From the NCBI GenBank assembly GCA_043719155.1, contig JAYSUJ010000031.1:1-25769 (forward strand): a stretch of DNA of 25,769 nt, in the 5' to 3' direction. A model generated the notes under the pieces. It saw only the letters and a program-made list of their open reading frames with translations, was not told where the DNA came from and searched no databases. Shown in pieces: positions 740 through 25,769 of the stretch (its first letter is position 1; each line of letters opens with the position of its first letter). Made by a program: the position numbers and the translations under genes. This DNA is from a bacterium (lineage in GTDB: Bacteria > Patescibacteriota > Minisyncoccia > Phycocordibacterales > UBA5272).

Positions 740-768
740 TTGTACATTAACAAAAAAATATTTAGTAT
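740..768 (+). promoter_or_regulatory. promoter-like box TTGTAC-17nt-TAGTAT, near-identical 35-nt copy at 16936-16972
   Basis: TTGTAC(740-745), 17-nt spacer, TAGTAT(763-768); same 35-nt string upstream of the small ORF at 17015; overlaps left inverted-repeat arm of cassette 1. Confidence 0.45.
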
Positions 769-825
769 CACAATTTGTTTGCAACTTGTATGTTTTGTGA
801 ACACAACAAGAAGAAAGGATTTAAC

Positions 826-1062
826 ATGTCTGGCAAACTTTATTTTGGTAAAATCTTCTTTGCTAAAAATTCAAAGGAAGAATATACCGTTGGGTATCTA
901 TTCTGTAAAAACTTGGAGGATGCAAAGATCCAGATAGCAACTGATGCAGCCACTGCATGGATGAATTTAAAAGCCAAACCAGAATTTCAAGATGTTATTT
1001 TTTTGAAACTGGTTTTGGTAGGAAAAGATGGTGATGAGCATCAGATTAATTGGAAACCTTGA
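826..1062 (+). CDS. small hypothetical protein (78 aa) ending ...INWKP; paralog of ORF 2977-3231
   Basis: ATG at 826 preceded by AAAGGA RBS; the 775 start would lie at/before predicted TSS; C-terminal NWKP and TVGY motif shared with ORF 2977-3231. Confidence 0.5.
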   Translation: MSGKLYFGKIFFAKNSKEEYTVGYLFCKNLEDAKIQIATDAATAWMNLKAKPEFQDVIFLKLVLVGKDGDEHQINWKP

Positions 1063-1070
1063 AGTGATTC

Positions 1071-1100
1071 TGGTTTGATAATTGAAAGATTATCAAACCA
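1071..1100 (+). other. perfect 12-bp stem / 6-nt loop hairpin immediately after small ORF
   Basis: TGGTTTGATAAT-tgaaag-ATTATCAAACCA; weak T tract follows. Confidence 0.7.
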
Positions 1101-1206
1101 ATTTTACAAAGCATATAATAATGTGTAAGCAAATTGTGGTACTGAATACTAAATGTTAAAAAACAATTTTGAAAAACTCGAAATAAAATAGAAATATATA
1201 AAATAT

Positions 1207-2865: not shown

Positions 2866-2976
2866 GAAACAATATCTTAAGATAAAAAAATTCTTTTAAA
2901 ATAAAATATCGAGCGTCACAATTTATAAATAAAATATTTGTATAATTAGTAGGACTAGCAAAAGGAAACCTGCATC

Positions 2977-3231
2977 ATGAAAATTGAAGTAGAGAGTTGG
3001 GTATCTATCCAATACATGCTTGAGCGTAAAAATGGCCAAGCTTCTAAGTATGCACGACAACAAACTCATGAACTCCGGATTAAGGAAGGGCAAACTTTTG
3101 AACAAGCTGCTGAGTGCTGTTGGGGTGATATCAAGAAGATAACGGTCGGCTATAAGATAACTTTTGTTAAATCTGAAAGGATAAATATAAAAGTTACCGA
3201 AGAGACTCAGGTACTTAATTGGAAACCATAG
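2977..3231 (+). CDS. small hypothetical protein (84 aa) ending ...LNWKP; paralog of ORF 826-1062
   Basis: AAAGGA RBS upstream; shares C-terminal NWKP and internal TVGY with ORF 826-1062; occupies the slot where rpmD (L30) normally lies but has no L30 similarity. Confidence 0.5.
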   Translation: MKIEVESWVSIQYMLERKNGQASKYARQQTHELRIKEGQTFEQAAECCWGDIKKITVGYKITFVKSERINIKVTEETQVLNWKP

Positions 3232-3240
3232 CTATCCAGG

Positions 3241-3273
3241 CACGAGCAAACTCCATTTTGGAAAATGCTCGTG
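3241..3273 (+). other. stem-loop after small ORF (8-bp stem CACGAGCA/TGCTCGTG with inner TCCA/TGGA)
   Basis: inverted repeat seen directly; no T tract, so not a classical intrinsic terminator. Confidence 0.6.
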
Positions 3274-3363
3274 TCACCTACTAAATATATAAAATTTATT
3301 TATAAATTGTGGCACTTGATAAAATAAAATTTGAAGAATTAAAATAAAAAGAAACAAAAATAT

Positions 3364-3882: not shown

Positions 3883-3904
3883 ATCCAAACTGAAAATTAA
3901 AAAC

Positions 3905-3937: not shown

Positions 3938-4000
3938 TTTGAAAAATATGTTATAATGCTCCTTAGTTTAAAAAACAAATTAATTTATCTAACTCATTTT

Positions 4001-5705: not shown

Positions 5706-5715
5706 TTTTAAAAGC

Positions 5716-5985
5716 ATGACAGAAAAACAGAAATACAATTTTTATTTAGCCAATCTTGGACCCGAACTAGGTAGGTTATTAAAATTTAAAAATATTGATG
5801 AACTACAATTTTTAGGTGCAAGACAAAGAGTGGAAAATATATTAGAAAAAATAGTTTTAACAAGAAGTGAGACAAATTTTCTAGAAATAGAAAAAATACT
5901 AGACTTGATACTCTGGAGCGATTCTGTATCCCAAGACGACTTGGATTTATACTTTTACCCAATTTCTTTAAATATGTTAAAATGA
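5716..5985 (+). CDS. hypothetical protein (~90 aa)
   Basis: ATG at 5716 (track start 5698 is TTG); stop overlaps adk start in an ATGA overlap, suggesting translational coupling. Confidence 0.45.
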   Translation: MTEKQKYNFYLANLGPELGRLLKFKNIDELQFLGARQRVENILEKIVLTRSETNFLEIEKILDLILWSDSVSQDDLDLYFYPISLNMLK

Positions 5986-11452: not shown

Positions 11453-14245
11453 ATGTTAAATTTAAGTGAACTCAGAAAAGATTTTAAATCCAAAGAAGAA
11501 GAAATAGAGTATCTGCATGCTCTGATTTTGGAAAAAGAGCAAGAAAAAAATACTGAAAAAAAAGATGCAGGATCTGGGATTTTAATCAGAGAAGACAAAC
11601 AAGACAAAGCACATCAGATAGGTGAGATACTTCATAAGTATAAGGGTGAAAAAACAGAAGACATTTTAAATAAAAACTTTGTCTTAAATGAGGAGCATGT
11701 GACAACCCTGTCTTTAGGGCTGCAGCCAGAGGACCATGACGATAAGCTGCAAAAATTGATAGACATTTTTTTAACGGAGGGTGTAAAAAACTCTTTTTTG
11801 GTATTAGAGAAAATTGGTGATGCTCATTTAGAAGATGATTTCCATAGATTTCTAGTACAATATCTTTTGAAAACCCAAACTGAACATGCAAAAAAAAGAC
11901 TAAGCAGCTACAGGGAAACAGCCAAAGCTTTGGGGACATCGCTTTTTCAGGTTATTTTACCAACTGAAAAAGAAAATCAGCAAACGCCTGGAAACCAGCC
12001 ACCAGACCCAAAGAACATCATTGCTTTAATGGAGCGTTTTTACATAGGTATGATGTCCATTTCCGATCCGACCAACATGGAGAAAAATAAAAATTATTTT
12101 ACTTTGGAAATTGCTAAGCCACAAAACTCTAACCAAATAAAGTTTTTTGTGTCTGTTCCAAACGACTTCAAAGACCTGTTTCAAAAACAGGTTTTAGCCC
12201 TCTATCCTTCGGCTAAAATAGAGTTGCAACCAGACGATTACAATGTTTTTTCAGCAGAAGGTTTTTCAGTAGGAGCCTATGCTGAAAGTGGGAAGATCCC
12301 AGCTTTGCCTATCAAAACTTATAAAGATTTTGCAGGTGACTCTATTTCGGTTGTGTTGTCGGTCCTGTCGCAACTTCAAGACAATGACGAGGGGGCTGCG
12401 ATACAAATAGTGATACGTCCTGCTGGAGAAAAATTTATAAAAGAATATGGAAAGCTGTTGGACAAAATGCGTAGAGGAAAAACCTTGAAAAATGTTTTGG
12501 CTGACAGGACTGTAATGGGTTCGATAGGGTATGAAATCAAGCAAATGTTTAAAGGTGAGACACAGTTGGAAAAAGAAAAAACTAACAAATCCCATGAAGA
12601 TGAAGATGCGATAAAACTTCTGTCAGAAAAATTAAACTCAACAATTTTTAATACAAATATCAGACTCGTTGCTTCTTCAAAATCTCCAATTCGCAGTTCG
12701 CAAATTTTGCATGAAGTTTCTTCTTCTTTTAGGCAATATACGGAAAGCAAGGGCAATAGTATTATCTTTAAAGACATAAAAGCCAGAAGCTCGGCCCAGT
12801 TTTTCAAACATTACTCCTATCGCTATTTTGACGATTCAGAAAGCTTCCCCCTCAACGCTGCAGAGCTCGCCACTATTTATCACTTTCCAAAAGGTGTATC
12901 AGACCGAGATTTTTCAGAGCTCAATCAATATGCTGCAGCCCAAGCTCCGGCCCCTCTAGACTTACCGAAAACAGGTATTTTCCTTGGAAAAAATAATTAT
13001 CGCCACCTTTCTACGCCGATACATTTTGAGCCAGACTCACGGGTTCGACATATGTATGTTATAGGACAAACGGGTACTGGTAAGTCTTATTTCTTGATGA
13101 ATAATATCATTCAGGATATTAAAAATGGTGAAGGACTTTGTTTTATAGATCCTCATGGGGCAGACTTGCAAACCATTATGTCACTCATTCCAAAAGAAAG
13201 AATTGATGACGTGATTTATTTTGACCCAGGAGATCTGTCACGGCCTATGGGACTAAACATGCTCGAGTATGACATTACTCATCCAGAGCAAAAAACTTTA
13301 ATTGTAAATGAGCTGCTATTAATTTTCAACAAACTTTTTGATATGAAAACAGCCGGAGGTCCAGCCTTTGAACAGTACTTTCGTAACTCAGCACTTTTGG
13401 TAATGGAGCACCCTGAAAGTGGTTGTACTATGCTTGAAATTTCTCGTGTACTTGCCAACTCAGAGTTTAGGCATATGAAACTGCAGCATTGTAAAAATCC
13501 GATGGTTAAACAATTTTTCGAAACAGCAGAGGCGACAAGTGGTGAACAAGGTTTTGAAAACTATGTTCCTTACGTTACAAATAAATTTGATAACTTTTTA
13601 AGTAATGAATTTATGCGACCTATTATAACCCAAGAAAAATCGGCTTTTGATTTTAAAGACATCATGGCCAATAAAAAAATCTTACTTGTCAATTTATCTA
13701 AAGGAAAGTTGGGCGAGCTTGGTTCGCAACTTATAGGTTTGATAATTGTAGGGAAGATTTTGGTTTCAGCTTTTGCACGTGACCCTCATGAAAACCCGCC
13801 GCCTTTTTATTTGTATTTAGACGAGTTTCAAAATGTTGCAACTGATTCTATAAAATCAATCTTGTCTGAAGCACGTAAGTACAAACTTGGTTTAACTTTG
13901 GCCCATCAATACATAGAGCAAATTCCCAAAGATATAAAAGATGCTATTTTTGGAAACGTGGGCAGTAAAGCAATTTTTAGAATAAACATGGAAGATGCAA
14001 AGTTTATCGAAACCAGTTTTTCACCAACCTTTACAGCTAAAGATATTATAGGTCAAGAAAGAGGGAATTGTTATTTGAGTTTGTTGGCCAACAACAAGCC
14101 ACAAAAGCCTTTTAATTTACAAGTACCGCGTTTACCAGACGGTAACGAAGAGATAAAACAGGTAATTATTGAACTCTCAGCTTTGAAATACGGAACCCCG
14201 AGGGAGGAAGTAGAGGAAATGATAATGAAAAAATTTAATATTTAA
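11453..14245 (+). CDS. FtsK-HerA superfamily P-loop ATPase, VirB4/VirD4(TraG)-like conjugation or type IV secretion ATPase with ~500-aa N-terminal domain
   Basis: Walker A GQTGTGKS; Walker B hhhhDEFQ (FYLYLDEFQN) followed by ...ARKYKLGLTLAHQ... (Arg finger/Q motif characteristic of TraG/VirB4/HerA); no N-terminal TM segment. Confidence 0.65.
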   Translation: MLNLSELRKDFKSKEEEIEYLHALILEKEQEKNTEKKDAGSGILIREDKQDKAHQIGEILHKYKGEKTEDILNKNFVLNEEHVTTLSLGLQPEDHDDKLQKLIDIFLTEGVKNSFLVLEKIGDAHLEDDFHRFLVQYLLKTQTEHAKKRLSSYRETAKALGTSLFQVILPTEKENQQTPGNQPPDPKNIIALMERFYIGMMSISDPTNMEKNKNYFTLEIAKPQNSNQIKFFVSVPNDFKDLFQKQVLALYPSAKIELQPDDYNVFSAEGFSVGAYAESGKIPALPIKTYKDFAGDSISVVLSVLSQLQDNDEGAAIQIVIRPAGEKFIKEYGKLLDKMRRGKTLKNVLADRTVMGSIGYEIKQMFKGETQLEKEKTNKSHEDEDAIKLLSEKLNSTIFNTNIRLVASSKSPIRSSQILHEVSSSFRQYTESKGNSIIFKDIKARSSAQFFKHYSYRYFDDSESFPLNAAELATIYHFPKGVSDRDFSELNQYAAAQAPAPLDLPKTGIFLGKNNYRHLSTPIHFEPDSRVRHMYVIGQTGTGKSYFLMNNIIQDIKNGEGLCFIDPHGADLQTIMSLIPKERIDDVIYFDPGDLSRPMGLNMLEYDITHPEQKTLIVNELLLIFNKLFDMKTAGGPAFEQYFRNSALLVMEHPESGCTMLEISRVLANSEFRHMKLQHCKNPMVKQFFETAEATSGEQGFENYVPYVTNKFDNFLSNEFMRPIITQEKSAFDFKDIMANKKILLVNLSKGKLGELGSQLIGLIIVGKILVSAFARDPHENPPPFYLYLDEFQNVATDSIKSILSEARKYKLGLTLAHQYIEQIPKDIKDAIFGNVGSKAIFRINMEDAKFIETSFSPTFTAKDIIGQERGNCYLSLLANNKPQKPFNLQVPRLPDGNEEIKQVIIELSALKYGTPREEVEEMIMKKFNI

Positions 14246-14248
14246 AAA

Positions 14249-15370
14249 TTATTTAATTTCACTAAATTTAGGCTTAGAGACGGTGCTTGTACTCTTTTCT
14301 GGAGTGTAGGTTAAAATTGGGTATTCCAGCTCTTTAAGTTCAGGTATTTTTTCAAAATAATATTTGAGCTTGTACTCAATAATCTCTAGGGGGAGGTTTA
14401 AGATTTGCATGAGAGGAAAGTGCACAGCACCGTAAAAAGATAAAACTTTTCTGTCTTTAAATTTATCTGGATTTTTCCTTATCTCTAGTAATAAATTTCT
14501 AGCCACAATAAATTCTCTAAAGTTGGCAAAAGAAAGTTCAACTAAGGTTTTTCCAAAAGTGGTTTGCTGCAGTTTTTCTGGTACTATATCGGCGTAACGT
14601 AAACGTCCCTCCAGGTTGTCTCTCGGCAAAAGCATTAAAAGTGAGATTGTGCTGGACAGAGCCGTGAAAGTGTCGACTTCGACTGCTGTGTCGACTGCTT
14701 TATCTCCACCCATAGCCCGGATAGTTTCTGCTGTCACAGCTGAAATAGTTACTGGGATAGCTGTTGCAGAACTTATTGCGCTAGTCGTTTCAAATAAAGT
14801 CGCAAACCTTTCATCCCAATATCTATTTCCTTTTTTTCCCATACTAAAATTATCTGGGTCGCTGCAAATGACTTTTTTATTGTGTAAAAAAGCTAAAAGC
14901 TTTAAACAGTTAAAGTATTCTCTTGCATCATGTGGTCCTTGTTTTGCAAGCCAGGTCATTATTTCCTTTTTTCCTTGCGGCAGTTTAAGAGAAAAGAGTT
15001 TTAAATATTCCGGGTCCAAGTCGGAAGAATTTTCATTGGAAAAATATTCAATTAGGACAATGTCCGAGTTTTTAATGGAATTTGATATCTCCTCAAAGCT
15101 ATGAGAAGCTTGGGGAGGATAGTGTTCTACCCCGATAAATTTTAAAGTGGTGTTTGGAGAATTAGGGATTTGCAAAGAGCTATACTCTTTGAAAAATTTA
15201 GGTGACTCTTTGTCTTCTGGTGACTCTGAACCTTGTCTATCCTTTATATTTAGCAAAGTTTTACCTGCAACCAGAGCAGCTGCTGCTCGAGCTGCCCACT
15301 TTATACCGTTCTCGATAATTCTTCGCCTGCTTGGTTGGGACTTTTCGTTTTTTAGTTTTTCTGGAGACAT
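14249..15370 (-). CDS. hypothetical protein, possible TraB/GumN (Tiki-like) family
   Basis: N-terminal FIGVEH...VLIEY and C-terminal FYGAVHFP resemble the GxxH...E...GAxH signature of the TraB/Tiki superfamily; Ala-rich hydrophobic N-terminus after an RRR motif. Confidence 0.4.
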   Translation of the reverse strand: MSPEKLKNEKSQPSRRRIIENGIKWAARAAAALVAGKTLLNIKDRQGSESPEDKESPKFFKEYSSLQIPNSPNTTLKFIGVEHYPPQASHSFEEISNSIKNSDIVLIEYFSNENSSDLDPEYLKLFSLKLPQGKKEIMTWLAKQGPHDAREYFNCLKLLAFLHNKKVICSDPDNFSMGKKGNRYWDERFATLFETTSAISSATAIPVTISAVTAETIRAMGGDKAVDTAVEVDTFTALSSTISLLMLLPRDNLEGRLRYADIVPEKLQQTTFGKTLVELSFANFREFIVARNLLLEIRKNPDKFKDRKVLSFYGAVHFPLMQILNLPLEIIEYKLKYYFEKIPELKELEYPILTYTPEKSTSTVSKPKFSEIK

Positions 15371-16935: not shown

Positions 16936-16964
16936 TTGCACATTAACAAAAAAATATTGAGTAT
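16936..16964 (+). promoter_or_regulatory. promoter-like box TTGCAC-17nt-GAGTAT (copy of 740-768)
   Basis: 35-nt near-identity with 740-776. Confidence 0.45.
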
Positions 16965-17014
16965 CACGTTTTACAAAAAATTAGTTGAGATAGCTTGTTA
17001 ACAGGAGGAAGAAG

Positions 17015-17275
17015 ATGGTAAGTGAAAACGAAAAGAAGCCAGACTTTCTAGTTGTTCTCCGTTCAAAAAAAACAGGAGAACATCTTGTGGGTGAATTTTA
17101 TAAACTTCCCCCAGGTGAAATTGGCTGCGAAGAGCCTGTACTATGGCAATTGCTAGCATTCCTGAAAGGCTTCTTGGAGGAGAGAAATAAAAAGATGCTG
17201 ACGCACCCTGAGGGTGTTGGAGATCTAGAGCTCCTGGGTTTGTACAGCAAATTCGACGATCTTGAAAACTATTGA
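17015..17275 (+). CDS. small hypothetical protein (86 aa), GC-richer than neighbours
   Basis: strong AGGAGG RBS 8 nt upstream; inserted in the normally tight rplJ-rplL junction; no similarity to the other two cassette ORFs. Confidence 0.5.
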   Translation: MVSENEKKPDFLVVLRSKKTGEHLVGEFYKLPPGEIGCEEPVLWQLLAFLKGFLEERNKKMLTHPEGVGDLELLGLYSKFDDLENY

Positions 17276-17281
17276 CAAGTA

Positions 17282-17316
17282 GCTACACGCATAGTTTCTG
17301 AAACTTTGCGTGTAGC
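17282..17316 (+). other. 10-bp perfect stem-loop (GCTACACGCA / TGCGTGTAGC) after small ORF, T-rich tract downstream
   Basis: seen directly. Confidence 0.65.
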
Positions 17317-17378
17317 ATCTATCTTAATTTGTTTTTTGTAAAACGTGGTACTTGATATTAAATTAAAATAAAATTAAT

Positions 17379-17741
17379 ATGAAATTTGAACAATTTTTGA
17401 AAGATATAGAAGGGGCAACAGTGCTAGAGTTGAATGAATTAGTAAAGGCAATTGAGGAAAAGTTTGGTGTTTCAGCGCAAGCTGTAGCAGCAGCTCCAGC
17501 AGCTGGTGGTGCGGTAGAGGCAGAAGCTAAATCTTCTTACAGTGTCATCTTGGCAGATGCAGGCGCACAAAAAATCGCCGTGATGAAAGTGGTAAAAGAA
17601 GCTCTTGCTCTTGGTCTTAAAGAGGCTAAGGACTTGGTAGACGCTGCTCCAAAAGAAATAAAAGCTAATGTTCCAAAAGCAGAAGCTGATAAACTTAAAG
17701 CAGATCTTGAGGCTGCAGGTGCGAAAGTTGAGTTGAAATAA
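17379..17741 (+). CDS. rplL: 50S ribosomal protein L7/L12
   Basis: 120 aa, Ala-rich hinge, conserved C-terminal domain sequence. Confidence 0.92.
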
Positions 17742-17759
17742 ATTTAACTTTTTGAAAAT

Positions 17760-17800
17760 AAAAAACAGGCATAATAAAATTTGCCTGTTTTTTGCTTTTT
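17760..17800 (+). terminator. intrinsic terminator after rplL
   Basis: AAAAAACAGGCA...TGCCTGTTTTTT with long T run. Confidence 0.7.
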
Positions 17801-17845
17801 TTTATGGTAGAATATCATTCCTCTAAACCAAAAGGAGTCAGCTCA

Positions 17846-18238
17846 ATGAAAGTCTTAAAGTTTTTTGGAAAAGTACTTCTCAGTGCTTTTGCTGTACTGG
17901 TTGTTTTACTCTCGGTTCTCATCTACACAGCACCAGAGCCCAAACCAGAAAATTTGGATGTACCGCAGTCCTGCCAAAAAAATAAGATCGTTATGATCTC
18001 ATCCACATGGTGCCACTGGTGCAAAACAGCCAAGCTTTCCTTTCAAGCAAGTGGCATTGAATTTGAAGAAATTCTACATAACAAAATGCTTGCTAATGAC
18101 GCCGATGCTTTGGATAGCAAGTATTCAAAGAAAGGTTTTCTGGGCTACCCATTCTTTGTCTTGACGGATAAGAACGGTAAAGAAAGTTATGTTCCCGGTT
18201 GGCAAAAGGAAAGACTGGTCCAGGAATACTGCAAGTAG
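17846..18238 (+). CDS. membrane-anchored thioredoxin-fold protein with CHWC active-site motif
   Basis: ATG at 17846 with AAAGGAG RBS (the 17792 start overlaps the terminator); N-terminal TM; WCHWC; paralog of 18383-18805. Confidence 0.65.
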   Translation: MKVLKFFGKVLLSAFAVLVVLLSVLIYTAPEPKPENLDVPQSCQKNKIVMISSTWCHWCKTAKLSFQASGIEFEEILHNKMLANDADALDSKYSKKGFLGYPFFVLTDKNGKESYVPGWQKERLVQEYCK

Positions 18239-18261
18239 TATTCAGGAAATAGTTTTTTTAC

Positions 18262-18298
18262 GAAGAGTCCTCAGACTGAGGACTCTTTTATTTTTTAT
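18262..18298 (+). terminator. intrinsic terminator
   Basis: GAGTCCTCAG...CTGAGGACTC stem then TTTTATTTTTT. Confidence 0.7.
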
Positions 18299-18299
18299 G

Positions 18300-18327
18300 T
18301 TGATTTATTCTGAAATCATGGTATAAT
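18300..18327 (+). promoter_or_regulatory. sigma70-like promoter TTGATT-16nt-TATAAT
   Basis: seen directly, ~55 nt upstream of the 18383 CDS. Confidence 0.55.
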
Positions 18328-18382
18328 TTTTTTCTTAGCAAAAGCTAAGTTCCCAGCCATACATGTCCTGAAAGGACAAAAC

Positions 18383-18805
18383 ATGAGTAAGGTGAAAGAA
18401 TTGTGGAGAAGTGACTTGGGTACATTTTTTCTAGCTTGTTGTCTCGGTGTGGGGATTATACTGTTTTCCCACCTCGGCAACAAGTTGAGAGAGCTGGAGG
18501 CAAAATCTGCCCTTCAAGTTGCTTTGACCGACAACTGCAAGAAAAATCACATCATCATGGTTTCGGCCAGCTGGTGTCATTATTGTCGTACGGCGACAAG
18601 AGAGCTTGGTGAGTTGGGGGTTAAGTTTCTCGAAAATCAAATCGACAGACTTCCGCTTGAAGAGCAAAAAGAAATTGCTCGTCAACTCCAACCTTACGGT
18701 TTCGTTGGTTACCCGTTCTTTATAGTTCGAAACCACGAAACTAACCAGTTCTCCTACGTCAGCGGCTGGCAAAAAGCTCAAGTTGTGCAGCAATACTGCA
18801 ACTGA
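18383..18805 (+). CDS. membrane-anchored thioredoxin-fold protein with CHYC motif (GC-richer paralog of 17846-18238)
   Basis: shared SxSWCH.C, GYPFF, GWQK and C-terminal YC with upstream paralog; visibly higher GC. Confidence 0.7.
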   Translation: MSKVKELWRSDLGTFFLACCLGVGIILFSHLGNKLRELEAKSALQVALTDNCKKNHIIMVSASWCHYCRTATRELGELGVKFLENQIDRLPLEEQKEIARQLQPYGFVGYPFFIVRNHETNQFSYVSGWQKAQVVQQYCN

Positions 18806-18831
18806 GCTTTTACTCAATACTTCTGCCATTT

Positions 18832-18860
18832 GGGCTCTTCGCAAGAAGAGCCCTTTTTAA
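18832..18860 (+). terminator. intrinsic terminator (GGGCTCTTC-GCAA-GAAGAGCCC + TTTTT)
   Basis: GNRA-looped 9-bp stem with T run. Confidence 0.75.
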
Positions 18861-18888
18861 TTTTTAATTCTTAGTTATACTGTAAATA

Positions 18889-21030
18889 GTGAAAAAAATA
18901 ATTTTAATCTCCCTTGGGCTTTTCCTGTCAACAAACTCCGCATTTACACAGAGTATAAATAATTTAACTAGTAATTTAGTTTGTCCAGAACTTAAATATT
19001 TCCAAAAACTAGGAAGTAACGACAAGAGAAATAATGGAGAAACAAGTAAATTGCAAAGTTTTTTAAAACAAAACCTGTCTTTATCAAATCAGCAATTTTT
19101 GGTATCGGGACATTTTGGTAGAGTAACTCAGAATTTTGTAAAACAATTTCAAGAAAACAACAATTTAATTATTTCAGGACAAGTAGGTCAGATAACGAGA
19201 AATAAAATTCTAGGCTCATGTTCTAGTTCAGTGGATGATACAATCACAAATTACGAAATGAAAACTTCTTTTTTGGAAGGGACACAAAGTGTGATGCTTA
19301 ATGTAAGCTTTTTGAATTCTGTACAACAGTCAGTGATGCTAAATTCCTATCAAGTTTCGCAATATAAAGTAAAATGGGGAGATGGTACAGAAGATATATT
19401 GGAGTGTAATGGTTTAGCTTTTCCAAATTCAACAAGTGAAATTCAACGGCAATGTGGTGGTGGCTTGTCAACAAAGAAATATTCTCAGCCAGGAAATTTT
19501 ACAATTTCTTTAACCGGACAAAATGGTAATATTCTAAAATCTATCTCGTATGAGTATAAATCAGCGATATCTTCTTGTACTTTTAACGGACAAAGTTATA
19601 CAAATAATCAAAGTCTTGTAACGTATTTAACTTCTTCCGTTCCTCTTGGTTCAACTTGTCAATCACAGACACGTACTTGTACCAATGGAACTTTGTCTGG
19701 AAGCTACACAAATGCTTCTTGTTCTGTAACTGTTGCTCAATCTTGTTCTGCGGGTGGTGTAACAATTGCTAATTTAATTACAAGACTATTTTATCTGTCC
19801 TCAACTGTTCCTTATGGTTCAATTTGCCAAAGTGAAAATAGGACTTGTAACAATGGGGTATTGAGTGGAGGTTCTAATTTTTCATTTTCAAGCTGTCAGC
19901 AAACTTCTGATCAGCAGATGATTGTAAACCTTACACCTTTTGCTTTGACGACTCCTACGAATAACCAAACAGTAACAAGCAGAGTAATAAGTTTTTCAGG
20001 TACTTGTGACTCAAGTAAGGGATATGTATTTTTAATTGTGGGTGCTGAAAGTAAAAACACTTTATGTAATGCAAATAATACTTTCTCAGATACTTTAAAC
20101 TATGTTGGAAATTTTGGACAGGTAAATGCTGGGACTGGCTATTTGTCAGAAGGTGGCGCTTTTAAGCAAACAATGGTGCTCAACTTAAGCTTCCCTTACC
20201 AACCTTTAACCACAAATAGAAACGATAAAAAAACGTCTATAAATTTTAACAATGTGTATTCGCCGGATGTGATTTTAAAAGACGGTTGGAGATATGTTTA
20301 CTTTGGTGGGTGGGTAGAGAATGGTCAAACTCATGACAATATTTATAGAATGAAGTGTGGGAATCTGGGTGACGGGTGTACTGACTTGGTAAAAGTTTTA
20401 GACGGAATGGCACATGGTTTTGACCATATAAATGACCCGTCTATTATTCGAAAAACTGACGGAACTTATATTATGTATTTAACTGGTCTGGTCAATGGCT
20501 TAAATGCTTTCACACCTTCGAATAATAAAATATATTATTCTACATCCAGTGACGGGGTTACTTGGACAGCACCTATACTTGTAATTTCTAATGCTTGGCT
20601 ACCCAGTGCGACTATTGGTGTGACTGGTCAAGTAGAAGTTTTCGGGAATGAGACTTTGGTTATGGGAAATGTAGCTAGATTTAAACTTGGGGCAAACGGT
20701 ACGACGGCTACTAACAACTATGAAGCGCTTGTTTTTTCAAATGGAGAATTTTATAGTAATTCAAGTATAAAATATAGATCGAGTATTGGTATCTACCAAA
20801 TGTTTGGAGAAAGAAGTGGTGCTACAGCCATCGACTATCTGTCATCAACAGACGGGATACATTTTACCCTTGTTACAAAAGATGTGGTCACATCTGCTTC
20901 AGCAGGCATGTTGCATGTTCGCACACCTGGGCAAGACTCAGACACTGGAAATTGGCTTTACTATGGCGCAACAAATAATCCAAATGCAACTGAAAACAAA
21001 ATCTTGTTCCAAACTTGGACAGCACAGTAG
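18889..21030 (+). CDS. large secreted protein: signal peptide, peptidoglycan-binding-like domain, PKD-like (WGDGT) domain, two ~50-aa Cys-repeats, C-terminal 5-bladed beta-propeller glycosidase-like domain (GH43/GH32-like) with BNR-like SxDGxTW
   Basis: GTG start giving MKKIILISLGLF signal; GHFGRVTQNFVKQFQ...GQVGQITRNKI PG-binding-like; VKWGDGTE; repeated C...TCQSxxRTCxNGxLSG; DPSIIRKTDGTYIMYLTG and STSSDGVTWT. Confidence 0.65.
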   Translation: MKKIILISLGLFLSTNSAFTQSINNLTSNLVCPELKYFQKLGSNDKRNNGETSKLQSFLKQNLSLSNQQFLVSGHFGRVTQNFVKQFQENNNLIISGQVGQITRNKILGSCSSSVDDTITNYEMKTSFLEGTQSVMLNVSFLNSVQQSVMLNSYQVSQYKVKWGDGTEDILECNGLAFPNSTSEIQRQCGGGLSTKKYSQPGNFTISLTGQNGNILKSISYEYKSAISSCTFNGQSYTNNQSLVTYLTSSVPLGSTCQSQTRTCTNGTLSGSYTNASCSVTVAQSCSAGGVTIANLITRLFYLSSTVPYGSICQSENRTCNNGVLSGGSNFSFSSCQQTSDQQMIVNLTPFALTTPTNNQTVTSRVISFSGTCDSSKGYVFLIVGAESKNTLCNANNTFSDTLNYVGNFGQVNAGTGYLSEGGAFKQTMVLNLSFPYQPLTTNRNDKKTSINFNNVYSPDVILKDGWRYVYFGGWVENGQTHDNIYRMKCGNLGDGCTDLVKVLDGMAHGFDHINDPSIIRKTDGTYIMYLTGLVNGLNAFTPSNNKIYYSTSSDGVTWTAPILVISNAWLPSATIGVTGQVEVFGNETLVMGNVARFKLGANGTTATNNYEALVFSNGEFYSNSSIKYRSSIGIYQMFGERSGATAIDYLSSTDGIHFTLVTKDVVTSASAGMLHVRTPGQDSDTGNWLYYGATNNPNATENKILFQTWTAQ

Positions 21031-21115
21031 GGTAAGACTTGTCAAAGTTGTACTTTTCTAAAAAGTTGTTTAAACTAAACTCAATTAATAGAGTAAGTAT
21101 TAAAAAAGAGTAAAT

Positions 21116-21790
21116 ATGCTAAAAGAGTTAGGAAAAATATTTGGAAGTGAGAATAGGGTAAAATTACTGAGGTATTTTCTGGCGCATCCCAATGAGCAGA
21201 TAGTAATTGCTGACTTGGATAAAAAATTAAAAATAAAAAATTCAGAGCTTAAAAAAGAAATTAAAAATTTAGTAGCTATAAACTTTGTAAGTGAAATAAC
21301 TTTGGTGTCAGAAGTGGAAGAAAAAGTAAAACAAAAAAAAGTTAAAAAAACTAAGAAAAATATTTTACAACTTTCTGGTCCGAAAACTAGGTTAAAAATA
21401 GTAAATGAAGCGGGGCTAGAAATAAATAAAAATTATGTTTTCGCTGACTCACTAGCAAAACTCCTTTTGGATTTTAGACACATCGACAGGTTGGAGATGT
21501 TGGATAGCTTTAAAAAATTTGGAAAGATTAAATTGCTATGTTTGGGTGGGGTTTTCTTGCAAGATGAAGAGGGGGCCTTGGACTTACTTATTGCAGGAGA
21601 CGCGTTAGACAAGGACAAAATAGATGGCTTCATTAAAAATTTAGAAGCTGACTTTGGGACAGAGCTTCGATATGCTGTTTTTGAATCTGAGGAATTTAGA
21701 TACAGGGTAAACATGTTTGACAGATTGTTGAAAGATTTTTGGAAACGGCCGCATGAGAAAATCTTGGAAAAAATAGAGACAAGGCCATAA
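21116..21790 (+). CDS. hypothetical protein, possible winged-helix N-terminus
   Basis: 224 aa; N-terminal RVKLLRYF...IADLDKKL region is HTH-like; no firm family assignment. Confidence 0.45.
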   Translation: MLKELGKIFGSENRVKLLRYFLAHPNEQIVIADLDKKLKIKNSELKKEIKNLVAINFVSEITLVSEVEEKVKQKKVKKTKKNILQLSGPKTRLKIVNEAGLEINKNYVFADSLAKLLLDFRHIDRLEMLDSFKKFGKIKLLCLGGVFLQDEEGALDLLIAGDALDKDKIDGFIKNLEADFGTELRYAVFESEEFRYRVNMFDRLLKDFWKRPHEKILEKIETRP

Positions 21791-21903
21791 TTTTTTTTTA
21801 AAATAGATATCCACAAAAATAACACACAAGGTGTTTGTTTTTGTTTTTTCCACTATATACTATTCTTACATTAGTAATTTAAATATTAATTAAATAATAA
21901 AAT

Positions 21904-22698
21904 ATGAACTATATAGAACTTGTAGGAGGAGCACTAATTAAGGCTTCTCAAATAATCTTCAAGGATATAATTGTCTTTGTTCCAAAGTTTTTCTTGGCGT
22001 TTGTTGTGTTTGTTGCCTTGATGTGGATATCAAAAGTTGTCTCAAAGCTTATTGGGGACTTGTTGAGATTGGCTAGAATCGATGCTTTGCTTGCTAGAAT
22101 CGGCATAACTCAAGCCTTCCATGAAGTTGGCTTTCAGGTATCTATTGCTTATGGAGTGCAGGTATTTATAAAATGGACACTTGCTTTGATGGCATTTGTT
22201 ACAGCCTTTAAAATAATTGGTTTAGACGAAGTTGTGTACTTTTTAGAATTTGGTCTGTTTAATATCCTGCCGGACATTTTAAAATTGTCTATAATGTTTT
22301 TCCTAACAGTGGTTATTGCAAATAAAGTGAAAGACGTTGTATCTCATACTTCATATGTTGCAAAGAATCACTCGCCTTTTTTGGCAAATTTATCTTGGTT
22401 TACGGTTGTGCTTTTTGGGGTTATTGCAACTTTACAAGAGATGGACATCCTCAGATTTGTTACCGACTCAGCTTCTGGCATAATTCAGGCTCTTGGTTTG
22501 GGGCTTGCTCTGGCTCTTGGTTTGGCTTTTGGGCTTGGATGTAAAGAGGAGGCAAGATGTTTGCTGCGTTCCTGGATGGGGAAGGAGTGCTATGACCTCG
22601 ACTGTGGTTGTAACACTTTCGGTTGTGGAAAATGTTCTGGTATTTCCGACGACTCACATGAAGACTCTTGTGAATGTGACCATTGCAATCTATCTTAA
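21904..22698 (+). CDS. polytopic membrane protein with C-terminal Cys-rich tail (11 Cys in ~50 aa)
   Basis: several hydrophobic helices, GLGLALALGLAFGLG segment, then CKEEARC...CYDLDCGCNTFGCGKCSG...CECDHC. Confidence 0.55.
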   Translation: MNYIELVGGALIKASQIIFKDIIVFVPKFFLAFVVFVALMWISKVVSKLIGDLLRLARIDALLARIGITQAFHEVGFQVSIAYGVQVFIKWTLALMAFVTAFKIIGLDEVVYFLEFGLFNILPDILKLSIMFFLTVVIANKVKDVVSHTSYVAKNHSPFLANLSWFTVVLFGVIATLQEMDILRFVTDSASGIIQALGLGLALALGLAFGLGCKEEARCLLRSWMGKECYDLDCGCNTFGCGKCSGISDDSHEDSCECDHCNLS

Positions 22699-22730
22699 AA
22701 AAAACTTAAAATTTAATTTTTTTAAAAATA

Positions 22731-22765
22731 AAAACATCTCTAAGATATAGAGGTGTTTTGTTTTA
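22731..22765 (+). terminator. intrinsic terminator after 21904-22698
   Basis: AAAACATCTCTA...TAGAGGTGTTTT (one G·U) plus TTTTGTTTT. Confidence 0.6.
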
Positions 22766-22831
22766 AAAAATTGGTGAGAATATAGAGAAGATAAGTGAGA
22801 GTAAGTAAAAATAAGAAAAGAAAATAAAAAA

Positions 22832-22857
22832 GAAGCGACACGCTTGCGTGTCGCTTC
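22832..22857 (-). terminator. GC-rich hairpin GAAGCGACAC-gcttgc-GTGTCGCTTC; terminator for the minus-strand flotillin gene
   Basis: 10-bp perfect stem; on the minus strand it is followed by a U tract (A-run 22820-22831 on the + strand). Confidence 0.7.
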
Positions 22858-22895
22858 CACTAGTAAACCAGTTTGACGAAAATTCAGAGAAGAAA

Positions 22896-24254
22896 TTATT
22901 CCTTCTTCCCTGAAAGGATTGAGTTGACTGAGTTCAGGAGTGTTTTACCTTGGTCAGTTTGACCAAGGGCCTCCAGCGCTGCAGCCAGCTGAGTGCCGCC
23001 GTTTGCAGAGAAGAGCTCCATTGCTGAGGTCATGCCTTCAGTGGGGTTGCCACCGTTTGCGATAACTTTAACATCGGCACCTTCGAGTGCTCGAGCCTGA
23101 GCCGTACCTACATTCATCTGGGCTTCGATGCCTTTGATGACTGCCAGATATTGCAGATATGGTCCGTTTTGACCGGACTTCTCCATGAGCTCGATTTGAC
23201 TCTTAACCGGTGCCATAAGTTTTGCGAACTCTGCGGCACCTTCTGCTTCACCTTGAGCTTTTACACCTTCGGCGTGCAGCTTAGCTGCGTTAAGAGCTGC
23301 TTCTGCTTTGATCTCGACTTGCCGGCGTTCTTGCTCGGCCAGAACTAGTGCAGCGGCTTTTGCGTTTTCAGCCAGACCACGTTGAGTCACCAACCCAGCG
23401 GCGATGTCTTTCTCGTTGGTTTGGGCTTGAGACGTAGCAATTGCAGCACGAGCTTCAGCGTCAGCAATGCCAACTTGGCGCTTGCTATCTGCTGTCGCTT
23501 GACCGACTTGCTTTGCTGCTTCCTGAGCACGTGTGTCAACTTCACGCTGAGCTTCGATTTCGCGAGTCTTTGCAGCTTGGCCGTTTTTGGCGACTTCGAT
23601 GCGAGACTCCGATTCGATCTTACTCGACGCTTTTGCCATGATGTTGGCAATGACAGCCGATCCCCTACGGTCACGAATGTCAAGCAACTCCACGTTCTTC
23701 ACGGGAACGATGCCCCATGATGCAAAAGATTCCTTCACTTCTTCTGTGAATTCGTCGGCAATCTTCTTCCTGTCACCCATGATTACGTTGATGTCGTGGC
23801 GAGCCAGAGATGTACGAATACAACCCCGAACCACGTCATGCAACTGCTCCATGAATTTCCTAGGATCCGACTGCATGCGAACAGCAGCTTTGGCGGTGTC
23901 TTGCACTTGAAGAAATGCAATCACATCCACATCGAACGGCAGTCGATTAACGTCGTATCCGTCGTAGTCCTTTAACAGGACAGACAACACTTCAACACTG
24001 ACAGGTTTGCTGACGATGCCGAAGAATGGTACCCATTGGGGCCAATGATAATAGACGTTTCCTTCTGCTTGCTTCGATCCGTAAGAGACGGTTGCACTGC
24101 GTCGTTGAACGACGTGCACCATTTCTGTTGGAACGACTGTTCGAAATAGGACAGCCAGTAGGATCGTTCCGGCTAGGATCGAAACCACTAGGACTGCTAT
24201 ACCTATCGCAACTGTTGCGACAGATAAGTTTAGGTTTGCTAGAGTTTGAAACAT
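22896..24254 (-). CDS. SPFH/band-7 flotillin-like protein (YqiK/FloT-like), GC-rich
   Basis: N-terminal TM, SPFH domain, then long Ala/Glu/Gln-rich flotillin-type coiled-coil repeats; much higher GC than surrounding genes. Confidence 0.8.
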   Translation of the reverse strand: MFQTLANLNLSVATVAIGIAVLVVSILAGTILLAVLFRTVVPTEMVHVVQRRSATVSYGSKQAEGNVYYHWPQWVPFFGIVSKPVSVEVLSVLLKDYDGYDVNRLPFDVDVIAFLQVQDTAKAAVRMQSDPRKFMEQLHDVVRGCIRTSLARHDINVIMGDRKKIADEFTEEVKESFASWGIVPVKNVELLDIRDRRGSAVIANIMAKASSKIESESRIEVAKNGQAAKTREIEAQREVDTRAQEAAKQVGQATADSKRQVGIADAEARAAIATSQAQTNEKDIAAGLVTQRGLAENAKAAALVLAEQERRQVEIKAEAALNAAKLHAEGVKAQGEAEGAAEFAKLMAPVKSQIELMEKSGQNGPYLQYLAVIKGIEAQMNVGTAQARALEGADVKVIANGGNPTEGMTSAMELFSANGGTQLAAALEALGQTDQGKTLLNSVNSILSGKKE

Positions 24255-24494
24255 GTTGTCCCTTTCTGGAACAAAGTATTACATCGGACTCAAGGTCCGA
24301 CGCCGGCATTATACAATATATTTAAATAATCGTAAATATTGACTAAACATAATAAAAGTGTTTTAAGTTAATTACTTTTTCAAATTATTTTTAAATAAAT
24401 TTCTTTTATTTGATTAAATTTGTTTAAAAAAGTATCACATTTTTATGGTTTTTTATTTTCTTGTGAGGGAATAGTGGAATGGATGTGGGTTTGC

Positions 24495-24523
24495 TTGACT
24501 TTAGCTTAAACTTCGACTATAAT
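24495..24523 (+). promoter_or_regulatory. consensus sigma70 promoter TTGACT-17nt-TATAAT, likely rRNA promoter
   Basis: TTGACT(24495-24500), 17-nt spacer, TATAAT(24518-24523); ~680 nt upstream of the 23S start with no intervening CDS. Confidence 0.6.
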
Positions 24524-24819
24524 TGCACTTATCGTTTTTCAGTAATTCAAAAAGCTGATGACGTTGAAAATTGACAATTAAATTCTACCCGCCCCAAACA
24601 TTTTAGATGCAAAGTTTAAATTTATTTCTAGCAAATTTATTTGTTAGATAATCAGGTTTAAATAATAATGATGTTGGAATGTGTTAGTCAACGCAAACGC
24701 GAGGTAGAGAAAAACGGATCTGTAGGAATACAGGTTCGAACATAAAAATAATTAGGTAATTATTTTTGTGTAAAGCAAATTGTATGTAGACAGCGGTGTC
24801 GACCAATGCATTTGCAAAA

Positions 24820-25105
24820 TCCAGCACTACATTTTGTTTTTAATAATTGTGTTTTAAGAAATACACACTATGGAGGTCGCAAGACCAGAAGCCTTCGGCT
24901 GAGACTCGAACTGAGATGTAAGTTCTCAAGTGTGTACGAGGTGGAAGTGAGCCTTCCTAGAATTATAGGCCGGACGGTTCTAGTGAAAACGTCCTCCCAC
25001 CGAGATGGGAGGTTTGTGAGAGATTACTAGAATTTCAACTTGCCGCCCATTTCTTAGAACAGAATTTAAATTAAAAATAATTTGAAAATAAAATGTAGTG
25101 CTGGA
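24820..25105 (+). ncRNA. structured GC-richer RNA element bounded by perfect 16-bp inverted repeats in the 23S leader
   Basis: TCCAGCACTACATTTT(24820-24835) / AAAATGTAGTGCTGGA(25090-25105); interior contains GGTC-GCAA-GACC, AGCC-TTC-GGCT and CCTCCC-accgagat-GGGAGG hairpins. Confidence 0.4.
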
Positions 25106-25207
25106 AAATTCAATAAAATATATAATTTTTTAGTTAATGAGAAAAGATTAGCAATAATATTTTCGGGGTTAATTAAAACAAAATATAGCTTTACACTTCC
25201 TGATAGG

Positions 25208-25769
25208 AGTGTTAAGGGTATATGGTGGATGCCTTGGTTCTGTATGGCGATGAAGGACGTAGTAAGCGAACGATATGACTTGGGGAGCCCGCTAACGGCA
25301 TCGATCCAAGTATTTCCGAATGGGGAAACCCTATTAAGGTTATACTTAATAACACTAGCATTAATGCAGTGAGCAGACGTGGGGAAGTGAAACCTCTCAG
25401 TACCCACAGGAAAAGAAAATAAAAATAATTCTCAAAATAGCGGCGAGCGAAATGAGAGAAGCCCAAACCGGCGCAGCAATGCAATGGGGTTGTAGGTTAG
25501 AAACGTAGTTATCTAGAACAGTAAAAAAATAAGTAGTTAGATTAAGCTTTTGGAAAGAAGCACCAAAGAGGGTGATAGTCCCGTAATCGAAAATTATTTA
25601 TCTGTTTTGTTTCTATACCTGAGTAATTCGAGACATCAAAAGCTCGGGTGAATTTGCCAGAACTAACTGGTAAGGCTAAATACATACAGAGACCGATAGT
25701 GAACAAGTACCGTAAGGGAAAGGTGAAAAGAACCCTGGAAAGGGAGTGAAATAGAACTGAAACCATATA
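25208..25769 (+). rRNA. rrl: 23S ribosomal RNA, 5' portion (continues beyond window)
   Basis: GTTAAGGGTATATGGTGGATGCCTTGG...GATGAAGGACGT; CCGAATGGGGAAACC; AGTACCGTAAGGGAAAGGTGAAAAGAACCC...GGGAGTGAAATAGAACTGAAACC match conserved 23S domain I strings. Confidence 0.88.

Follow-up and report, generated by a model that had tools for sequence, protein, structure and literature searches.

An optional stem-bounded cassette, probably clipped by RNase III, at a variable hairpin site in the 23S-5S rRNA leader of a Paceibacteria-like CPR bacterium

The intervening sequences (IVS) of the 23S rRNA genes of Coxiella burnetii and Leptospira are segments of a few hundred nucleotides with terminal inverted repeats that form a long stem within the rrn transcript. 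They are sporadic in close relatives, horizontal transfer being suspected, contain an ORF or nothing, and are naturally excised by RNase III without re-ligation (PMC4990558). The Coxiella IVS is 428–444 nt long, carries an ORF, and is closed by a 28-bp terminal-repeat stem that RNase III cuts mid-stem. The rRNA genes of CPR bacteria contain non-intron insertions, many of which are short, lack ORF or intron features, and lie at the tops or bases of stem-loops; an IVS-like nature and cleavage by RNase III were proposed for them (PMC11270868). Leaders, spacers and inverted repeats are mentioned nowhere in that paper. Correia elements (CREE) of Neisseria are non-autonomous, foldback, inverted-repeat-bounded elements that lie intergenically in operons, show presence/absence polymorphism, give RNA hairpins that can be RNase III substrates, and have ends that can create outward promoter-like hexamers (PMC2649163). 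Finally, rRNA processing stems, the RNase III sites flanking 16S, 23S and 5S rRNA, provide long leader-borne helices in the rrn transcript.

The window, i.e. the whole stretch of DNA analysed here, comprises 25,769 nt and ends within a 23S rRNA gene. The features of the 23S leader are as follows.

24495..24523, + strand: sigma-70-type promoter of the unlinked 23S-5S operon (-35 TTGACT at 24495-24500, 17-nt spacer, -10 TATAAT at 24518-24523)
24563..24583, + strand: boxA-like conserved leader block, GTTGAAAATTGACAATTAAAT, present in 7/7 leaders
24660..24819, + strand: conserved upstream leader domain with a hairpin at 24740-24771 and CAGCGGTGT at 24791-24799, ending with GCATTTGCAAAA
24820..24862, + strand: left arm of the leader element (16-nt perfect repeat, extended 24-bp helix, then 18-bp helix)
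24863..25048, + strand: cargo (interior) of the leader element, 186 nt, GC-richer, two domains
24863-24935, + strand: cargo domain 1 (GCAA hairpin, cUUCGg hairpin, third hairpin)
24940-25047, + strand: cargo domain 2
25049..25105, + strand: right arm of the leader element
25106..25201, + strand: conserved 3' leader, kept in relatives (right flank AAATTCAATAAAATATATAA at 25106-25125, small hairpin, ATAGCTTTACACTTCCT at 25185-25201)
25202..25769, + strand: 5' 568 nt of 23S rRNA (Rfam LSU_rRNA_bacteria, model positions 1-562, 411 bits), continuing past the contig end

The promoter matches the consensus at 11/12 positions and ends 679 nt upstream of the Rfam 23S start at 25202, as given in the original prediction (~680 nt). 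Its hexamers and spacing and the downstream TTATCGTTTT are kept in 6/6 related leaders, with a one-base difference in the -35 hexamer of L016, which reads TTTGAC in the register of TTGACT. The absence of a preceding 16S gene was confirmed: neither 16S rRNA nor tRNA was found by Rfam anywhere in the window, nor any tRNA or tmRNA by ARAGORN. There is no + strand terminator between the promoter and the 23S gene, and the upstream promoter is conserved; hence co-transcription of the intervening DNA with 23S is very likely. The block at 24563-24583 is one that we liken to rrn boxA antitermination motifs. The upstream domain, whose terminal GCATTTGCAAAA is the left flank of the leader element (24820-25105), can be aligned across all relatives and is predicted to fold; the arms of its 24740-24771 hairpin vary among relatives in sequence, with complementarity kept. 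Directly upstream of 23S, the ~17-nt ATAGCTTTACACTTCCT provides the 5' strand of the processing stem of 23S; in L009 its homologue is paired with the trailer 3' of 23S. Over 17606-25670 the window agrees base for base with an independent Logan assembly (L001), which shows that the leader element is not an assembly artefact; the contig occurs in SRR23617205.

The leader element is 286 nt long and ends 97 nt upstream of mature 23S. Its ends, TCCAGCACTACATTTT (24820-24835) and AAAATGTAGTGCTGGA (25090-25105), are exact reverse complements over 16 bp, as reported in the original prediction. The repeat extends to 24 nt at 92% complementarity, being fully paired if G.U pairs are counted, and a second helix of 18 nt joins 24845-24862 with 25049-25066. 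The 16-bp repeat is thus predicted to be the base of a ~45–50-bp RNA helix that closes a GC-richer multi-hairpin core of 186 nt. Folding of 24810-25115 gave -106.7 kcal/mol on the + strand (z = -9.8; 0/100 shuffles as good) and z = -5.9 on the - strand, and the interior alone (24863-25048) gave z = -3.0 and -1.5, respectively. The GC content is 46–49% in the interior as against 16–31% in the arms and spacer. The expected GNRA hairpin, GGTC-GCAA-GACC, lies at 24875-24886 and is followed by a C(UUCG)G hairpin at 24890-24900.

The proposed Rfam search of the element returned no family: in Rfam 15 there was no match at the gathering score and none of note at E up to 10, the best being mir-9465 with 18.5 bits (gathering score 63; E = 0.74). 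The L013 elements and the remaining leader gave no Rfam family either at the same thresholds. A 74-aa ORF at 24806-25030, the sole long frame, was considered as coding cargo and rejected as a chance ORF, as it has no ribosome-binding site and a nonsense-like sequence. When the element was compared by blastn with the collected loci as a search for the origin of the cargo, only AT-rich noise was obtained.

Six related 23S leaders were recovered from metagenomes (L004, L008, L009, L013, L014 and L016), L004 from one metagenome scan and others by walking from L10 homologues; L013 is JGI Ga0558121_02160. They were compared in blastn blocks and in a multiple alignment with masking; aligning the window globally with L004 in MAFFT was misleading. 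Scans of genome contigs with a 23S signature and with a boxA-like signature gave 0 matches each, as did scans of viral contigs with the 23S signature, the leader-type arm and the cassette-c-type terminus (see below). Synteny with the flotillin gene did not lead to further 23S genes, the best homologues being ≤51% identical and L002 and L003 not adjoining 23S.

The flanks of the element, GCAATTGCAAA on the left and AAATTCAATAAAATATATAA on the right, are conserved in 7/7 leaders (the window and six relatives), and some hairpin stands between them in every genome. In L008, L009, L014, L016 and L004 it is a short hairpin of 7–13 bp of unrelated sequence, and only the window and L013 (2/7) have a long-armed element. 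As judged by 23S identity to the window, L008 (90.4%) and L009 (88.6%), which lack the element, are closer than L013 (85.3%), which has it; its distribution among the seven leaders is therefore sporadic and incongruent with relatedness. The element is thus an insertion that seems to replace the native small hairpin and not to split it, a pattern compatible with both transposition and recombinational replacement. In L009 and L013 the 23S genes themselves contain long simple hairpins and no cassette with these termini.

The arms and the interior of the element differ sharply in conservation between the window and L013. The left arm (24820-24862) is 93% identical to L013 13678-13720 and the right arm (25049-25105) is 89.5% identical to L013 13848-13902, with one double change from G-C to A-U that keeps the pairing. 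Identity is 44.9% in the cargo, as compared with 45.2 ± 1.8% for shuffled sequences, 61–76% in the leader flanks, 85.4% in the 23S 5' region, and 76% in the L10 gene. In the DNA examined, the window and L013 each have a single copy of the leader-type arms.

These data bear on the suggestion that the element is a native leader structure for 23S maturation or antitermination, or an in-situ expansion of a native hairpin. The presence of some hairpin at exactly this site in all genomes indicates that the site may have a structural role. However, the large element is missing from 5/6 relatives, including the two closest ones, and the boxA-like motif (24563-24583) and the processing-stem strand (25185-25201) lie elsewhere in the leader. 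In-situ expansion would also leave unexplained the close arm identity to the more distant L013, whose cargo is unrelated. The native-structure reading is therefore largely refuted, and we regard it as highly improbable. An rrn antitermination element of the boxA/nut type is not supported, for the same reasons, and neither is an rRNA processing stem, the interior matching no rRNA or Rfam family. As the L013 interior is unrelated and no Rfam family matched, a conserved ncRNA gene is excluded too; of the small ncRNA envisaged in the original prediction, there remain the co-transcription with 23S and room for a strain-specific RNA.

The predicted parallel with inverted-repeat cassettes of the ribosomal protein (r-protein) operons proved correct and became the key lead. 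Three such cassettes are present in the window.

740..1159, + strand: sister cassette a, S8-L6 spacer (47-bp outer stem, ribosome-binding site and 78-aa ORF at 826-1062, hairpin)
2907..3321, + strand: sister cassette b, S5-L15 spacer (42-bp outer stem, ribosome-binding site and 84-aa orphan ORF at 2977-3231, hairpin)
16936..17359, + strand: sister cassette c, L10-L12 spacer (40-bp outer stem with 6 G.U pairs, ribosome-binding site and 86-aa orphan ORF at 17015-17275, hairpin)

Cassette a is missing from the close relatives L005 and L007. Cassette b is absent from the S5-L15 spacer of relatives, which is 4 nt long, and cassette c from the L10-L12 spacer of seven relatives, where it measures 20–49 nt. 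The L10-L12 spacer of L013 has cassette-c termini (32 nt on the left and 18 nt on the right) enclosing an unrelated cargo that is apparently non-coding, with no ORF where the window's cassette c has one. The termini of cassettes a, b and c are related to one another, and cassette-c-type termini occur at three sites of the window; leader-type and cassette-c-type termini are alike at only 12–13 of 19 positions. Further copies of the arm sequence, which the original prediction had proposed to seek, were thus found as related termini at three r-protein sites and not as repeats of the leader-type arm itself.

The ORFs of cassettes a–c matched no Pfam, PHROG or NCBIfam family. No homologue of ORF c was found in 5.8 billion proteins, and none of ORF b in 1.84 billion representatives except for weak matches to giant repetitive proteins. 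ORFs a and b share no BLASTP similarity, though both end in ..NWKP. Scanned for promoters and terminators, the cassettes scored no higher than expected from shuffled sequence. Cassettes b and c carry outward promoter-like hexamers at the right end (TTGATA-17/18-TAAAAT or TAATAT).

On another reading, the conserved arms would serve as a portable processing module for a cargo that is a strain-specific, adaptive small RNA (a mini-mRNA in the r-protein operons), released at a very high level from the rrn transcript and acting, for example, in defence, competition or host interaction. The GC-richer cargo of the leader element, which beats shuffles on the sense strand only, and its GNRA and UUCG tetraloops are in line with this, as is the strong fold of the different L013 cargo (z = -12.3 with the arms). 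Exchange of the cargo behind arms of 90–93% identity resembles diversification of cargo behind a conserved delivery module, and the r-protein cassettes have ORFs with ribosome-binding sites. Against these points, no cargo is conserved or matched by Rfam, exact sense or antisense matches between the cargo and the window do not exceed those of shuffles in length, and the cassette ORFs are orphans among 1.8–5.8 billion proteins. Moreover, the L013 L10-L12 cassette has no ORF at the corresponding position, which suggests that cargo content is under no consistent selection. We consider a functional small RNA cassette unlikely. The GNRA and UUCG tetraloops and the stability of its fold give a hint that the cargo may not be a mere passenger.

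Pairing of the arms is maintained throughout the family. Across five distinct elements, pairing in the basal 16-bp helix reaches 98.8%, and 8/16 pairs are changed on both sides (0/500 shuffles as high), a covariation that cannot separate RNA-level from DNA-level function of the hairpin, the elements having been chosen as inverted repeats. On the sense strand, the arm mismatches comprise 27 G.U and 4 A.C; this excess is partly inherited, as three wobble positions are common to all elements with cassette-c-type termini, and a rough recount of independent events gave about 17 to 4, part of which could come from a transcription-associated C-to-T bias on the non-template strand. Complementarity extends over 40–50 bp, past the conserved termini of ~16–30 nt, and the inner arms are element-specific yet paired. 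The arms look selected for RNA pairing.

The same evidence bears on a purely DNA-level MITE or foldback transposon, whose arms would be terminal inverted repeats for a transposase encoded elsewhere, the RNA fold and any RNase III cutting being incidental. The original prediction had included a MITE-like insertion, and in substance that claim is supported: the element has terminal inverted repeats, a small size and no internal transposase, its orthologous site is empty or filled in different genomes, its arms are shared across genomes, and multiple related copies occupy different sites of one genome. Of the genomes examined, only those of the window and L013 combine leader-type with cassette-c-type elements, which suggests a trans-acting factor confined to those genomes, and CREE demonstrate that MITEs in transcripts can be RNase III substrates (PMC2649163). 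On the other hand, no target-site duplication is evident at the leader element, whose flanks are A-rich (..CAAAA before and AAATT.. after it), and no transposase or recombinase was found in the 25.8-kb window. Pairing of the element-specific inner arms, the sense-strand G.U excess, and the sense orientation of every copy in its operon, though independent events are few, are likewise at variance with a DNA-only element, which we judge to be quite improbable. An integron gene cassette, with an attC site at one end and an intI/attI platform beside it, does not fit either, as hairpin arms enclose the cargo on both sides and the window proteins that were scanned gave no integrase domain.

The element at 24820-25105 is best explained as an optional stem-bounded cassette of IVS/MITE-like character, clipped by RNase III, at a hypervariable hairpin site of the 23S-5S leader, a reading that we consider probable. 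The element would be transcribed passively from the 24495-24523 promoter within the pre-23S leader. Its conserved arms would fold into the 45–50-bp helix, capped by the strain-specific structured interior. A long perfect helix is the type of substrate that RNase III cuts, and the enzyme therefore most likely removes the insert by cutting its stem, as it does with 23S IVS; no rnc gene is present within the window. As the leader is discarded, the insert would be harmless to 23S. The arms would represent the conserved portable part and the interior an exchangeable cargo. Given the same architecture and related termini in three r-protein spacers, with small orphan ORFs there, the element would belong to a family of mobile or exchangeable cassettes riding the most strongly transcribed operons. 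'Empty' arm pairs were not found in the DNA examined.

Like the 23S IVS, the leader element measures a few hundred nucleotides, is sporadic, lies within the rrn transcript, and is closed by terminal repeats forming a long stem (24–50 bp here); the cassettes also share with IVS a cargo that is an ORF or nothing, and excision without re-ligation is their predicted fate. Unlike the IVS, it lies outside mature 23S and 16S, in the discarded leader and not in helix 9, 25 or 45, and does not fragment rRNA; its sister copies occupy mRNA spacers of r-protein operons, and its arms are conserved while the cargo is swapped. The S23p/PF05635 (23S_rRNA_IVP) ORF is absent, there being no credible ORF in the leader element and no Pfam match to the cassette ORFs. 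The CPR non-intron insertions belong to the same radiation but lie inside 16S or 23S genes (PMC11270868). As compared with rRNA processing stems, such as the 26–27-nt stems that enclose the 5S genes of relatives, the leader-element stem encloses a non-rRNA segment and is missing from most relatives. ERIC, a transcript-borne bacterial MITE, shows the same likenesses to the cassettes as CREE. Unlike both, the elements here are larger (286–420 nt), have unrelated cargos including ORFs with ribosome-binding sites, show no evident target-site duplication, keep element-specific inner arms paired, and in the leader apparently replace a native hairpin.

More tentatively, the elements may represent an undescribed class of hairpin-bounded, cargo-swapping, 'operon-riding' cassettes of Paceibacteria-like CPR bacteria. 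Their ~40-bp arm pair would be a portable module for RNA processing, and perhaps recombination, lodged at hairpin sites of the rRNA leader and r-protein spacers, which belong to the cell's most strongly transcribed units. Read-through by the host and processing of the double-stranded RNA would release strain-specific small RNAs or mini-mRNAs. Insertion or exchange would depend on a trans-acting factor found only in some genomes, such as those of the window and L013.

Were the element a plain MITE with an incidental RNA fold, it would be of modest interest. Inserts of this kind can fragment assemblies and mislead the annotation of rRNA operons in metagenome-assembled genomes. Neither the core r-protein spacers nor the leader of the sole 23S operon is fixed in this reduced CPR genome; they host optional long-hairpin cassettes, with arms better conserved than the rRNA itself and contents replaced wholesale between genomes. 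The probable cassette would carry the IVS concept, that of a selfish insert tolerated since it is excised by RNase III, beyond rRNA genes into leaders and mRNA spacers. It would also provide a system for asking how mobile elements can use a cell's strongest promoters without being lethal to it, what trans-acting factor moves the cassettes, and how orphan small ORFs and small RNAs arise and become expressed in CPR bacteria.

The window is an entire contig of 25,769 nt, present in both NCBI and Logan. It includes an S8-L6-L18-S5-L15-SecY-Adk-Map operon and genes for L10-L7/L12, giant PG_binding proteins and a VirD4/TraG-like ATPase. Homologues of L10 (~50% identity) are named Paceibacterota, Nomurabacteria or Pacebacteria; given these names and the gene content, the source is probably, as an approximate placement, a small-genome bacterium among the Paceibacteria-like CPR bacteria. 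The original prediction described an unlinked 23S rRNA gene preceded by a flotillin gene and an AT-rich spacer rather than a 16S rRNA gene, in agreement with the gene calls and with Rfam, which together with a tRNA search revealed no 16S rRNA or tRNA gene in the window. The promoter, inverted repeat, GCAA hairpin and GC-richer interior were likewise all found where it had placed them:

22896–24254, minus strand: flotillin-like gene, upstream of the 23S rRNA gene and followed by the AT-rich spacer
24495–24523, plus strand: 23S promoter TTGACT-17-TATAAT (11 of 12 positions match the consensus)
24820–24835 and 25090–25105, plus strand: perfect 16-nt inverted repeat
24875–24886, plus strand: GGTC-GCAA-GACC hairpin in the element interior
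24890–24900, plus strand: cUUCGg hairpin in the element interior
25202–25769, plus strand: 5' part of the 23S rRNA gene (Rfam; only model positions 1–562 of bacterial 23S matched)

The 16-nt repeat is the base of a longer helix of 24 bp, including two G.U pairs, followed by an 18-bp extension. For the sense-strand RNA of 24810–25115, which spans the whole element (24820–25105; arms 24820–24862 and 25049–25105), the predicted fold has −106.7 kcal/mol and z = −9.8, as compared with z = −5.9 for the antisense strand; a stem of ~50 bp, almost without interruption, encloses an interior of two domains. Folded alone, the interior (24863–25048) gave z = −3.0 for the sense and −1.5 for the antisense strand, i.e. 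a predicted stability that is modest but sense-strand-specific; its GC content is 46–49%, versus ≤31% in the flanking arms. The element has no match to any Rfam family, even at E up to 10, and no credible ORF, and neither copies of its cargo nor targets for it were found in the window and related loci compared. An assembly artefact was ruled out by an independent Logan assembly identical over 17606–25670.

Related 23S leaders were obtained from metagenomes, one (L004) by a scan with a 23S signature and five (L008, L009, L013, L014 and L016) by walking from L10 homologues; species-representative genomes scanned with the 23S and boxA-like signatures yielded none. All related genomes have 23S-5S unlinked from 16S and downstream of a conserved ~262-aa membrane-protein gene, which in the five walked loci is followed directly by the 23S promoter. 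The flotillin-like gene and spacer are extra in the window; the segment 22699–24494, with its 13–18% GC spacer, is missing at the orthologous position in these five. As the best homologues of the flotillin-like gene are just 47–51% identical, the segment looks like a separate insertion or transfer. Elsewhere in these loci, the L009 23S (3465 nt) contains long simple hairpins at 14474–14511 and 15057–15115, 5S genes of the relatives are enclosed by 26–27-nt stems (e.g. L009 16345–16489), and a LAGLIDADG ORF lies in the L013 rrn region (17353–17844).

Multiple alignment showed that every leader keeps both promoter hexamers at the same spacing, a boxA-like block at window 24563–24583, a structured mid-leader domain ending ..CAGCGGTGT..GCAATTGCAAA, the block AAATTCAATAAAATATATAA, and ~17 nt immediately 5' of 23S; in L009 these ~17 nt form the 23S processing stem by pairing with the 3' trailer. 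The mid-leader domain (24660–24819; TGTTGGA..AGTCAACGC..GCGA..GGA, a GGTAA-loop hairpin, TTGTATG..AGCGGT..) is conserved across the clade, with homologous parts in the five walked loci; arm sequences of its hairpin vary with pairing retained, and it has no Rfam match. Possibly this domain is a true RNA structure conserved in 23S leaders.

The element is bounded exactly by GCATTTGCAAAA on its left (last base 24819) and AAATTCAAT on its right (first base 25106). In L008, L009, L014, L016 and L004 this position is occupied just by a short hairpin (13, 7, 9, 8 and 10 bp, respectively), and the hairpin sequences are mutually unrelated. The element is thus optional, inserted where the 23S leader has a hypervariable hairpin, and the proposal that it is a leader processing or antitermination structure was rejected.

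Only the L013 leader contains an element, whose arms (13678–13720 and 13848–13902) are essentially those of the window. Arm identity is 93% and 89.5%, as compared with 61–76% for the leader flanks, 85.4% for the 23S 5' region and 76% for the L10 gene. The interiors (186 nt in the window, 127 nt in L013) are 44.9% identical, the level of shuffled sequence (45.2 ± 1.8). The two stems differ by one double substitution, G-C to A-U, that keeps pairing, and the L013 element is predicted to fold into a long stem with two hairpins (z = −12.3). These comparisons indicate conserved arms and exchangeable cargo. Hence the small ncRNA suggested by the original prediction was dismissed as a conserved one, and the cargo may be a strain-specific RNA. 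L008 and L009 are nearer to the window than L013 in 23S and in L10+L12, though they lack the element; its distribution is therefore patchy, so that it either spread horizontally or was repeatedly lost or replaced.

Sister cassettes of the element occur in further operons with high expression, and the proposed inserted, mobile-like element paralleling the r-protein cassettes is supported:

740–1159: cassette a, S8-L6 spacer, outer stem of 47 pairs
2907–3321: cassette b, S5-L15 spacer, outer stem of 42 pairs
16936–17359: cassette c, L10-L12 spacer, outer stem of 40 pairs

Within each stem are a ribosome-binding site, a 78–86-aa ORF and a strong hairpin ahead of the right arm. No cassette ORF matched the family libraries, and those of b and c are orphans among 1.8–5.8 billion proteins. 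On their left side, cassettes a and c have a further 19 nt in common, ACATTAACAAAAAAATATT, and the ORFs of a and b share a 3' end, TTAATTGGAAACC (..NWKP*). Cassettes a and b are missing from the loci of close relatives L005, L006 and L007, whose SecY is ≥90% identical to that of the window (S8-L6 spacers of 118–138 nt, S5-L15 spacers of 4 nt), and c is missing from seven relatives with L10-L12 spacers of 20–49 nt. The L007 S8-L6 spacer (5981–6104) is itself a small inverted-repeat-bounded structure with 18-nt arms 88 nt apart.

The L013 L10-L12 spacer contains two tandem stem-bounded cassettes (10520–10893 and 10898–11225). One has 32-nt left and 18-nt right termini as in cassette c around unrelated, apparently non-coding cargo with a nested inverted repeat; the other has a third terminus type, TTGCAAACTTTTAAGAGG / CTTCTTAAAAGTTTGCAA. 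Conserved ends with replaced content are thus the rule at both sites in both genomes. Among the genomes compared, only the window and L013 have both leader-type arms and cassette-c-type termini, which hints at a trans-acting factor specific to these genomes.

The core r-protein operon is an accessory-insertion hotspot in this clade. Accessory genes of the r-protein/SecY/Adk operon differ between the window (5352–5985; DUF5674 and a 95-aa ORF) and relatives (L005 11304–12937 and 8505–9941; DUF3307, Vut_1 and a 119-aa ORF, with Peptidase_S49 and an Rce1-like gene between L15 and SecY). The listed SecY ORF begins at a GTG 48 codons upstream of the relatives' 418-aa SecY start; this extra stretch (3857–4000) is probably intergenic spacer, as it contains a near-perfect 20-bp AT-rich hairpin (3899–3939).

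An ungapped alignment is possible between the 16 bp at the base of the leader arms and those of cassettes a, b and c and the L013 cassette (12–13 of 19 positions identical). In the aligned helix 98.8% of cells pair, with both-side changes in 8 of 16 pairs; values this high were obtained in none of 500 shuffles, and pairing falls to 31–44% in slid registers. This shows that hairpin potential is maintained across diverged members, which were preselected as inverted repeats, so that action as RNA or as DNA is not distinguished. Arm mismatches in the sense strand are 27 G.U versus 4 A.C, or ~17 to 4 in a rough recount discounting positions shared by descent; this excess is in favour of the sense transcript being selected to pair, and a transcription-associated C-to-T bias could add to the excess.

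The element is situated between the conserved promoter and 23S, and no terminator interrupts the sense strand before 23S is reached; the element is therefore very likely co-transcribed with 23S. Its closest working likeness is the 23S intervening sequence (IVS). That of Coxiella measures 428–444 nt, has terminal repeats forming a 28-bp stem that RNase III cuts in the middle, carries an ORF and occurs sporadically (PMC4990558). However, the element differs in the defining criterion, lying outside the mature rRNA. By analogy, RNase III would cut its 24–50-bp helix, and the insert would be harmless because the leader is discarded anyway; copies in mRNA spacers would likewise be looped out of, or cut from, polycistronic transcripts.

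A second resemblance of the element is to MITEs embedded in transcripts, for example Correia elements, which RNase III can cut or protect and which create promoters at their ends (PMC2649163), but the element is larger, with diverse cargo and no target-site duplication seen. As in Correia elements, the right ends of cassettes b (3316–3345) and c (17352–17380) contain promoter-like hexamers that face outward (TTGATA-17/18-TAAAAT or TAATAT) and immediately precede L15 and L12, respectively; the count of such sites shows no excess over shuffled expectation. Neither transposase nor integrase was seen, and cassettes could arrive or be swapped by transposition with a factor encoded elsewhere, or by recombination via arms or conserved flanks.

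A survey of CPR rRNA insertions described many short non-intron insertions at stem-loop tips within 16S and 23S and suggested that they are IVS-like; leaders and spacers were not treated (PMC11270868). The literature searched contained no account of cassettes of this kind in Patescibacteria or Parcubacteria. In these cassettes, whose function, cleavage and mobility are inferred, the conserved arms with swapped cargo in core operons of a CPR lineage are unexpected and directly testable.
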